From the IMG/VR virus record IMGVR_UViG_2563366895_000004: DNA of 28,177 bases, one strand, 5' to 3'. Shown piece by piece: positions 1,626 through 2,932 of this stretch. Both the position numbers and the translations under genes were made by a program. The stretch is from a virus. Lineage: Duplodnaviria; Heunggongvirae; Uroviricota; Caudoviricetes. The notes under the pieces were generated by a model that saw nothing but the letters and a program-made list of their open reading frames with translations, searched no databases and was not told the DNA's origin. The first letter of the stretch is position 1. Every line of letters begins with the position of its first letter.

Positions 1626-2329
1626 AACGCAGTTTAACAACACCCTATATTTAATCCAGAGTGCGAGCAACGTTGTCCCTTTCTCTTTTGCACTCTTAAA
1701 ATATACGATTACTTAAGTGAAGATGCTTGACGAATCGCCAAATAAAACATCTTCATCAGCATAAAAATCCATATATGATTGAAAATTTAGTCATTAATAC
1801 CATTCATATCTGAATACTGACCTAATATGCTTACTAACCGTGAGAAATCTTTTTTTCGACTTAATCACTCGAAATAAACTTTCACTCAATTGAAAACAAT
1901 TAGCTACAATTATCATTGCAATATCAAATCAAACATAACAACTTGCATAAATTCTCATGGGATACAGCATCAGTTGTGCCAAACACATAAGGAATTGAAA
2001 TGGACGGAGAAAGCTTTAACTTTGATGACAATGATATTGAATTTATTGCTTCAATGTATGCATCATGTAAATTATCAGGAAGTATCGCCCCCATAATGCA
2101 TATAATGGTTAGCATTCCAAGAAATAAGAAAAAACAATTCTACGAACGAGTTGAGCATTATTGTAGTTTATATTCCAATAAAAACCCACCTTCTTAAATT
2201 CGCTGCATTCTAGTGGATTCCATTAAGAAAACAATGACATACACTCAAACATATCTTTTTTATCAACAGTGAATTTCAGTTCGGCCAGTTTTTACCAGCT
2301 ATTATAAAAATAGCATCCATATAAAGTTT

Positions 2330-2428
2330 TTACCCCACAGGTACAGCTGGCCATTCGATAACCGCACTAAGGAAGTGCCAACACGATATCAGCAAGACCC
2401 GATATTTCTTCCATGCCGCCAGCAACGA
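2330..2428 (-). pseudogene. Degenerate tfa 3'-end remnant, copy B
   Basis: Minus-strand translation '[32 protein letters not shown]', matching the conserved Tfa C-terminus (recalled lambda Tfa '...[30 protein letters not shown]...'). Upstream sequence is AT-rich and non-homologous. Confidence 0.55.
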
Positions 2429-2900
2429 TGTTAAGGTTAAATTAATTATAAAAAAATATATTATAATTCCATCTTCGCATTAAATTTTAACCTTTAATCT
2501 CCACACGGAACAAGTTGCATAGGTGACTATATTAGGAAAACTTATAACCACCAAAACATTTGCTTTGCAAACAAAAACAGTGACCATTGACTCTAAGAAA
2601 ATTCCGATCTATTGTTAGGGTCATCAAAGTTACTTAACAGTATTCCGAAATGAAAATACAAAGCAAGCTAATTGTCTTATTAAACATTATCATTGCATTT
2701 ATATTATTTGAGCTTTTAGCTCAAAAATTTGGTTTGAGTACATTATTTTAAAGCAAGATAAACAATATCGGGCACTCTAGTTTTTATAATTAACAATTAA
2801 ACGTCCATAAAATGTTATTTACTTTTGTTCGCTATTGTCATATCTTAATATAGTGGCTTACGCCACTCTACTTTCATCACATTTTGTACGTTTATGTACT

Positions 2901-2932
2901 CGCCATGAAGCTCTTTCATGGCGATTTTTTAT
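2901..2932 (+). terminator. Rho-independent terminator (plus strand)
   Basis: Perfect 9-bp stem 'cgccatgaa'/'ttcatggcg' with a 5-nt loop, followed by 'attttttatt'. Confidence 0.6.

Follow-up and report, generated by a model that had tools for sequence, protein, structure and literature searches.

YncL is a stress response membrane protein, and proteins of this type have so far been known as chromosomal stress genes, whose cellular effect, that is, sublethal depolarisation and metabolic silencing, has been assigned only recently. The yncL gene is induced by heat shock and in minimal medium, and overproduction of YncL leads to sublethal membrane depolarisation, nucleoid condensation and the phage-shock response (PMC12542507). 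YncL is also a substrate of RseP in vivo (PMC10470546), and in Salmonella the yncL (STM14_1932) transcript was first catalogued as the small RNA (sRNA) STnc1110, while a yncL-lacZ fusion was found to need sigma-S (PMC5437024). Here, we analyse a stretch of 28,177 nucleotides (nt) from a virus of the Caudoviricetes (IMG/VR record IMGVR_UViG_2563366895_000004), called the window below, whose plus strand contains an unannotated open reading frame (ORF) of 33 amino acids (aa), ORF33 (2650..2751). It appears to be a YncL family gene that is carried by phages and has a conserved, structured 3' end, and it lies beside a second conserved small gene, ORF65 (2000..2197, plus strand).

The other systems to be compared are the morons of temperate phages. 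According to the concept of Hendrix and colleagues, a moron is said to have its own promoter and terminator and an atypical G+C content, and to separate genes that lie next to each other in related phages. The window consists of E. coli DNA, in which a truncated ydfJ is followed by a degraded Qin-like lambdoid prophage. In our view, its small genes probably represent two independent lambdoid-phage modules of the moron type that have been stacked, the ORF33 module being a self-contained gene for a membrane peptide of the YncL family.

The conservation of ORF33 can be followed in 41 distinct homologous loci. It is intact in 39 of them, the exceptions being an IS1 insertion and a contig end, whereas the adjacent ORFs of 31 and 56 aa carry stops or frameshifts in many of these loci. 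The variable sites of ORF33 number 13, 8 and 2 at the third, first and second codon positions, respectively. The most divergent allele, termed the Sx181 type, has 79% nucleotide identity to the window within the ORF and encodes MKIQSKLIILLNIIFALILFKLLAQKFGLYTLF, which is also 33 aa long. The two alleles differ by 12 synonymous and 7 non-synonymous substitutions, which gives a ratio of non-synonymous to synonymous rates (dN/dS) of 0.075, the lowest of the six frames, and the test of selection versus neutrality yields a binomial p of 5e-5. The ORF33 interval of this alignment contains a single gap of two columns, at the stop codon, that leaves the frame and the 33-aa length unaltered, and the flanks contain 1-8 gap columns each. 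As judged from these alleles, the substitution pattern shows purifying selection on the peptide.

The relationship to YncL is indicated by both profile and pairwise comparisons. Residues 1-28 give a match to NCBIfam NF000537, the model of the stress response membrane protein YncL, in all three ORF33 alleles, with scores of 25.0, 23.5 and 22.5 bits and E values from 1.3e-5 to 7.5e-5 (1.3e-5 for the allele of the window). In BLASTP, the alignment of ORF33 with K-12 YncL begins at Met1, is free of gaps and covers 28 aa (E 2e-7), of which 39% are identical and 64% positive. The alignment score of 60 compares with 20 +/- 4 for shuffled sequences, none of 20000 of which reaches 60. ORF33 and K-12 yncL share no DNA similarity outside the codons, which suggests that the two genes diverged long ago. 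These results point to ORF33 as a distant homologue of YncL. The gene has largely escaped annotation, since no RefSeq annotation is found at ORF33 among the approximately 100 records listed, and the exact peptide has been called just twice, without a name, among 15 billion predicted proteins. A literature search with the ORF33 and ORF65 peptide sequences, and with YncL combined with prophage, returned no paper on a phage-borne YncL homologue. Neither ORF has a match in Pfam, PHROGs or PADLOC, and tblastn of ORF33 against phages gave no match either, presumably owing to low-complexity masking.

The intrinsic terminator downstream of ORF33 (2900..2932, plus strand) consists of an 11-bp stem with five G-C pairs, a CTC loop and a T6 tract; the stem-loop TCGCCATGAAG-CTC-TTTCATGGCGA occupies 2900-2924 and is followed by TTTTTTATT. 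The hairpin has a folding energy of -15.2 kcal/mol (z = -4.7), and none of 200 shuffled sequences folds as well. The sequence after the hairpin on the minus strand is GTACATAAACG, which lacks a T-run, so the element is a one-way terminator of the plus strand. It should be noted that terminator-like sites as a class are not enriched in the region (6 observed vs 5.5 +/- 2.4 in shuffled sequences). Since the motif classes do not exceed the shuffled expectation, the case rests on this particular hairpin and on its conservation. A 186-bp stretch with the terminator is present in 827 of 5426 complete E. coli genomes, and the site is near-invariant across the sampled alleles; its stems vary only by one G-U to A-U change and at the closing pair. 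Another terminator-like hairpin, located within ORF33 (2707-2725), is broken in the divergent allele and is therefore treated as a chance occurrence.

The terminator forms part of a conserved 3' island of 83 nt (2843..2925, plus strand), which comprises hairpin 1 (AGUGGC-UUAC-GCCACU, 2852-2867, -8.9 kcal/mol), an A/U-rich linker of 32 nt (2868-2899) and the terminator stem-loop. The identity of the island to the divergent allele is 90%, compared with 79% for ORF33 and 69-72% for the outer flanks, and the approximately 90 nt that follow the ORF33 stop diverge freely, with 66% identity and with indels. The fold of 2797-2932 has a z score of -5.7. Among 16 distinct versions of the island there are no double compensatory changes, and all three one-sided changes in the stems (U-A to U-G, C-G to U-G and G-U to A-U) keep the pairing on the plus strand; by our own reading, each of them would give an A-C mismatch on the other strand in some allele. 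These stem changes constitute weak evidence for selection on a plus-strand RNA. The distance from the island to the tfa stop codon is always 85-170 bp. Homologues of the ORF33 module were not found outside E. coli and its phages, and a search of species-representative genomes with a 20-mer of the island returned five matches, all in unrelated taxa, as would be consistent with chance.

The borders of the modules are provided by the tail-fibre-assembly gene (tfa), the last 100 bp or so of which are present three times on the minus strand, according to the repeat analysis. Remnant 1 (1581..1691) forms the left border of the ORF65 module and matches 3031-3133 through direct repeats D2 and D4. Remnant 2 (2329..2428), located between the modules, matches 3016-3115 through direct repeats D1 and D3, and its ORF of 31 aa (2330-2425, minus strand) resembles the ORF of the tfa C-terminus at 3017-3112. 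Remnant 3 (3017..3148) is a truncated tfa pseudogene in the annotation of the NCBI pipeline PGAP and converges with the terminator. Remnants 1 and 3 coincide with Rfam IS009 matches at 1615-1806 (sub-threshold) and 3057-3257 (92 bits, under the gathering score), respectively. The ORF33 module as a whole (2465..3016, plus strand) was delimited by alignments as the block common to every genomic context. The contexts are homologous from about 2440-2470 to the tfa stop at 3016, which implies that about 550 bp move together as one block.

The two modules also occur separately. The ORF33 module is present in 831 of the 5426 complete E. coli genomes, with no occurrence on plasmids, and the ORF65 module in 591; both are found together, arranged as in the window, in 578. 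In addition, the ORF33 module is present in 47 IMG/VR contigs and in four phage records, which represent three temperate phages (mEp332, ev099 and PhiR70_1). In mEp332 and ev099 the ORF33 module stands alone, with its terminator, immediately behind the stop codon of a complete tfa, and in the annotation of PhiR70_1 the module and the side tail fibre gene have no tfa between them. In all three phages an AraC-type regulator, insertion sequence (IS) remnants and int/xis are located further on from the module. Conversely, the ORF65 module stands alone in strain O152:H23 Res13-Lact-ER01-35 (locus L063), where it adjoins an intact tfa behind a DinI-like gene, is preceded by the same remnant as in the window and serves as an example of other cargo behind tfa. 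Their separate occurrence shows that the modules are independent of each other. In two further loci (L007 and L008), the ORF33 module is placed between sitABCD, on the sitD side, and tfa. This iron/manganese transporter operon belongs there to the cargo behind the tail-fibre genes and reads toward the terminator of the ORF33 module.

Some further observations concern the integrity and the surroundings of the modules. IS1 has inserted independently within both cargo modules in several strains (A21005-2, locus L002, and the matches H26 and H67), and in A21005-2 it lies at about window position 2769, where it separates ORF33 from the conserved island. In strain NCTC9064 (locus L009), a deletion of 87 bp corresponding to 2771-2857 has removed the spacer and hairpin 1 and has kept ORF33 and the terminator, so that the allele appears to be a natural variant with a short 3' untranslated region (UTR). 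Upstream of the ORF33 module, mEp332 (locus L003, about 2325-2395) and ev099 (locus L005, about 3655-3725) contain a sequence resembling the 3' half of a transfer RNA in reverse complement (…TGGCGGAGAGAGGGGGATTTGAACCCCC…), probably the relic of an attachment site.

Part of this arrangement had been noticed in a preliminary description made from the sequence alone. It reported a strong plus-strand intrinsic terminator, a 65-aa ORF at 2000..2197 with AAGGA 6 nt before its ATG and a 33-aa ORF at 2650..2751, and the hairpin at 2900-2924 with its T-run as well as the coordinates and translations of both ORFs were recovered in our analysis. Transcription opposite to the late operon, which it proposed, would fit the layout, in that the plus-strand genes converge with that operon and have the terminator in their own orientation. 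However, the single transcription unit that it drew from 1660 to 2932 has to be divided into two modules of different origin, with the tfa remnant at 2329-2428 between them. It had also allowed that AT-rich DNA produces such ORFs by chance, and had named their conservation in related prophages as a means of checking. Both turn out to be conserved under purifying selection, with dN/dS of 0.075 for ORF33 and 0.28 for ORF65, and neither is noise.

Promoter candidates are available for both genes. For ORF33, a consensus scan identified the predicted promoter TTGACT-17-TATTGT (2587..2615, plus strand), which matches the consensus at 9 of 12 positions and whose predicted start is at about 2622. The -35 element is TTGACT in most alleles, TTAACT in L008 and TTGATT in L021, and the -10 element is kept across the alleles, with TATCGT in the divergent one. 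In our own reading, the -10 region TCTATTGT carries a cytosine that would be typical of sigma-S promoters. For ORF65, the same type of scan predicts TTCACT-18-TACAAT (1881..1910, plus strand), 90 nt upstream of the ORF, whose TACAAT is kept in the divergent copy of L063. LexA boxes were not found within 1285-3200.

Taken together, the following mechanism may be proposed. Modules would have accumulated behind the tail-fibre gene through recombination at the 3' ends of tfa, each bringing a single small gene that is read from the plus strand and faces the late operon. Int/xis are read along the plus strand in the circular phage, and consequently the cargo genes converge with the late tail genes. 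In the right module (about 2465-3016), the sigma-70/sigma-S-like predicted promoter at 2587-2615 would be followed by ORF33, a 3' UTR of about 180 nt and the terminator. The latter (2900-2932) would end a transcript of about 310 nt and would protect the tail operon from antisense transcription. The peptide, by analogy with YncL, may become embedded in the inner membrane and, when expressed, reduce the membrane potential of the lysogen. ORF33 would then be a modifier of host physiology rather than a classical toxin of a toxin-antitoxin system. Depolarisation by ORF33, like any benefit to phage or host, is inferred. The left module would contribute ORF65, a separate conserved protein with three predicted helices. 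Since the island is conserved above the coding sequence, a further role at the RNA level is suggested, such as stability, gating of translation or a 3'-derived sRNA.

Several considerations weigh against this proposal. The selection tests draw on only three haplogroups, which are all that exist among the reachable sequences. The NF000537 scores lie under the curated cutoff of 35 bits, compared with 68.6 bits for K-12 YncL, and short hydrophobic peptides can converge, which weakens the case for homology. ORF33 also has no Shine-Dalgarno sequence (UAUUCCGAAAUG), whereas K-12 yncL has one. The promoters are consensus matches, promoter-like matches in the region are not enriched (9 observed vs 13 expected), and transcription and translation of both ORFs are likewise predictions. 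The U-tract of the terminator is broken up in divergent alleles (CUUUCUUAUUC). The deletion in NCTC9064 and the IS1 insertion between ORF33 and the island imply that the full unit is dispensable in some lysogens. Finally, a peptide gene with a terminator does not account for the conservation of the island above that of the coding sequence.

The last point is the starting point of the alternative that survives best, although we judge it somewhat unlikely. According to it, the product is mainly RNA, the 3' part (about 2809-2932) being a trans-acting sRNA of the Hfq type with the linker CUCUACUUUCAUCACAUUUUGUACGUUUAUGUA as seed; this sRNA would have its own promoter (TATAAT, 2785-2790) or would be processed from the 3' UTR of the ORF33 messenger RNA. 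The island, at 90% identity, is the most conserved stretch of the module, above ORF33 (79%) and the other flanks (66-72%), and it has the usual layout of an sRNA 3' end, namely a hairpin, an A/U-rich linker and a terminator, within the fold of z = -5.7 and with three stem substitutions that keep the pairing on the plus strand only. However, double compensatory changes are absent from the 16 versions, and some alleles have a short or interrupted U-tail. The TATAAT is kept at a conserved spacing (TACAAT in the divergent allele), but has no -35 element at a workable distance. The region also aligns weakly over the full length of two Rfam families, MicC (RF00121, 23.4 bits) and Esr41 (RF02676, 15.6 bits); these scores are far under the respective gathering scores of 90 and 102 bits, the matches are mostly driven by the terminator, Esr41 belongs to a different island (SpLE1), and the MicC-like 5' motif UAUUGUCA is lost in the divergent allele, so that both identities were rejected. 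The cataloguing of the Salmonella yncL transcript as an sRNA in the first instance offers a precedent (PMC5437024).

A known prophage sRNA, PasB of enteropathogenic E. coli (EPEC), was also considered as an identity for the 3' part, and its absence from the window counts against an sRNA as well. The probe sequence of PasB is not found in the window with up to three mismatches allowed, and its locus in EPEC E2348/69 differs, lying between a tail assembly gene and gene J. IS009 Rfam matches flank PasB, as a preprint describes. At Rfam gathering thresholds, the whole window yields only sok, a cspA-like leader and DicF, all of them elsewhere than in the module.

An sRNA would be compatible with translation of ORF33, and the transcript would then have two functions. 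In this combined form, which we regard as unlikely, one transcript would give both a depolarising peptide of the YncL type and a regulatory 3' RNA, acting either in trans as an sRNA or by folding back as a gate on translation. If it were true, lambdoid prophages would possess a switchable damping of host membrane energetics, with a bearing on, e.g., dormancy, tolerance or the exclusion of superinfecting phage.

It is rather doubtful that the terminator serves mainly as an insulator, that is, as the last barrier to transcription from int/xis (leftward early) and from the cargo before the tail-fibre operon, with ORF33 incidental. The gene order in mEp332, ev099 and PhiR70_1, with int, the IS remnants and the AraC-type gene, the module, and then the tail-fibre genes on the opposite strand, would suit such a barrier, as would the constant distance of 85-170 bp between the island and the tfa stop codon and the orientation of sitABCD toward the hairpin in L007 and L008. 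In L008, however, about 700 nt separate the sitD stop from the terminator downstream of it. Antiterminated transcripts of the N type would ignore the terminator, as known from lambda biology. Moreover, an insulator leaves unexplained the selection on ORF33 and the conservation of hairpin 1 and of the linker.

The preliminary description had also likened the 33-aa peptide to small membrane toxins. The intuition points in the right direction, given the homology to YncL and the depolarisation that YncL causes when it is overproduced; what could not be recovered is an antitoxin RNA or any other hallmark of a toxin-antitoxin system. In its strict form, in which ORF33 would be a type I toxin repressed by an antisense or partly complementary sRNA, with a 3' UTR that folds back on the start codon as in hok, this reading is very improbable. 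The peptide is small and hydrophobic, its homologue depolarises the membrane (PMC12542507), and the ORF lacks a Shine-Dalgarno sequence. The minimum free energy fold of 2622-2932 pairs CGAAAUG, which contains the start codon, with CAUUUUG in the island, and a weak promoter-like site on the minus strand (2841-2812) could drive an antisense RNA. However, the long-range pairing is absent from the folds of the other two alleles, and the fold-back of the ORF33 messenger, found in one allele only, was rejected as a feature of the locus. A scan of the module revealed no minus-strand terminator or conserved antisense unit. PADLOC gave no match, and K-12 YncL itself does not belong to a toxin-antitoxin pair. 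The candidate complementary repeats (I2, I6 and I10, described below) are not collinear, and the ORF65 module that contributes them is absent from the phages that carry ORF33.

Finally, a region without function, consisting of decaying AT-rich phage DNA with chance ORFs and a relic hairpin, might be suspected from the heavy degradation of the prophage (with terminase fused to tail fibre), the IS1 insertions and the deletion within the module in some strains, the absence of distant homologues outside E. coli and its phages and the promoter and terminator motif counts that do not exceed the shuffled expectation, but is highly unlikely in view of the viable temperate phages with an intact ORF33 module, the frame-specific dN/dS values of 0.075 and 0.28, the decay of adjacent chance ORFs that spares ORF33 and ORF65, and a match between ORF33 and YncL that is hardly due to chance.

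The second gene, ORF65 (2000..2197, plus strand), is present in the PGAP annotation and the ORF list and corresponds to the hypothetical protein WP_001421370.1. Its ribosome binding site AAGGA (1989-1993) lies six bases ahead of the ATG at 2000, and it has been called, as a hypothetical protein, on at least 1000 contigs. Compared with the allele of L063, which is 79% identical and of equal length, the ORF65 frame has a dN/dS of 0.28 and the two remaining forward frames have 0.9-1.3, which shows purifying selection in this pair of alleles as well. An AlphaFold2 model predicts three helices with a confidence score (pLDDT) of 84.7, and an exhaustive HMMER search found only two true relatives, both of the E. 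coli type. The best lead for its identity, and a weak one, is GlgS/ScoR (PF08971, NF002793), which is 66 aa long compared with 65 aa for ORF65 and is likewise all-helical. Alignment by hhalign gives a probability of 74.5% and an E value of 2.7e-5 over 47 columns (11-57 to 9-55), the NCBIfam model reaches an E value of 0.037, and BLASTP gives 22% identity over 46 aa. By contrast, the NCBIfam score is 14 bits vs a cutoff of 105, Pfam has no match at E <= 1, and Foldseek against the PDB did not list GlgS. The top Foldseek matches, to the theta subunit of Pol III and Hot of phage P1, are non-significant (E 0.8-3.4), and with a negative hhalign comparison against HolE this identity was rejected. 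Sequence searches of the PDB with ORF65 returned nothing relevant, with one unrelated match (E 1.1).

In L063, the ORF65 stop is followed by an 11-bp hairpin (3537-3580, GTCATCCCTTT…AAAGGGATGAC), the left arm of which is missing in the window. With half of the hairpin deleted, the window offers ORF65 no terminator ahead of the one that ends at 2932; transcripts might read through into the ORF33 module, but this would be accidental. In addition, plus-strand stretches of the ORF65 module are complementary to the leader and start codon of ORF33, namely 1803-1819 to 2638-2654 (15/17) and 2017-2029 to 2620-2632 (13/13). These complementarities correspond to repeats I2, I6 and I10 and would allow RNA-RNA pairing where both modules are present. 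Since they lack collinearity and no linkage of the two modules is seen in the phages, they were judged to be due to chance.

As for the setting, the truncated ydfJ, a transporter gene of the major facilitator superfamily (1..1284, minus strand), was identified from the ORF list and from the PGAP annotation of identical DNA in strain HN257, which is colinear with the window over the first 6.8 kb or so only. The Qin-like prophage interrupts this chromosomal gene, which thus marks the prophage end. The two small ORFs and the terminator are located at the tail-fibre end of the prophage, between the truncated ydfJ and the gene at 3197-6778, and the integrase is at the opposite end of the window (26882-28177, plus strand). 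The G+C content is 28-35% over 1650-3000, compared with 46-51% in the tail-fibre gene. The latter (3197..6778, minus strand, 1193 aa) encodes, according to Pfam, a GpA_ATPase domain at residues 40-110, that is, an in-frame terminase N-terminus, and a C-terminal Peptidase_S74 (intramolecular chaperone) domain at 1050-1101; between these two parts, the product is an alanine-rich tail fibre. A deletion of about 20 kb has removed from the prophage of the window the head and tail genes that are still present there in HN257.

Other observations lie outside the modules. The Rfam matches at gathering level are located at 16910-17084 (sok, minus strand, adjoining hokD), at 23371-23422 (DicF, plus strand) and at 9200-9585 (cspA-type thermoregulator leader, minus strand, ahead of a cold-shock gene). 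An inverted repeat at 1526-1560 with arms of 12-13 bp (CCGCAGAACGTT-attgcatac-AACGTTTCTGCGG) has a T-run on neither strand. It is also kept 3' of the DinI-like gene in L063 (2868-2900), and is possibly the 3' end structure of a dinI-like cargo gene that has been lost.

If ORF33 is a distant YncL homologue as proposed, a diverged copy of a YncL-type gene is carried as temperate-phage cargo in about 15% of complete E. coli genomes and is missed by standard annotation. A phage would in this case have borrowed a peptide with which the host quiets itself down. Laboratory strains support the growth of mEp332 and PhiR70_1, which makes the system easily testable. The AT-rich DNA behind tail-fibre genes, which might be taken for junk, would consist of exchangeable cassettes bounded by tfa 3' ends, each with a selected small gene; such an organisation is helpful for annotation, although conceptually unsurprising.

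Among the known systems, the prophage sRNAs (PasB, Esr41 and the MicC-like IpeX) resemble the 3' part of the ORF33 module in that it is a candidate for a short RNA ended by a terminator in an intergenic position near tail genes, and PasB has IS009 (tfa) matches of Rfam nearby, as in the window. The type I toxins (Hok, TisB, ShoB, Ldr and ZorO) are likewise short hydrophobic membrane peptides that may dissipate the potential and are encoded on mobile DNA, with the hokD/sok pair present elsewhere in this prophage; ORF33, however, has no sequence relationship to these families, and no antitoxin RNA was found for it. The likeness to phage morons is closer. The ORF33 module has a G+C content of 28-35%, compared with about 50% in the adjacent genes, as well as its own terminator and a predicted promoter, and it is present behind tfa in some related prophages and absent in others. 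It differs from the typical case in facing against the flanking late operon, in the very small size of its product and in the stacking of two modules with tfa-end repeats between them. With YncL, ORF33 shares the length of approximately 31-33 aa, the single membrane pass, a short stand-alone transcript (predicted for ORF33) and the residues M1, S5, a basic residue at position 6, N12, F20 and [KR]-F-G at 26-28. However, K-12 yncL (b4598) is located on the chromosome in the patD-yncL-ortT locus and lacks a long conserved 3' UTR, whereas ORF33 appears to be prophage cargo between tfa remnants, in a module that carries such a 3' UTR.

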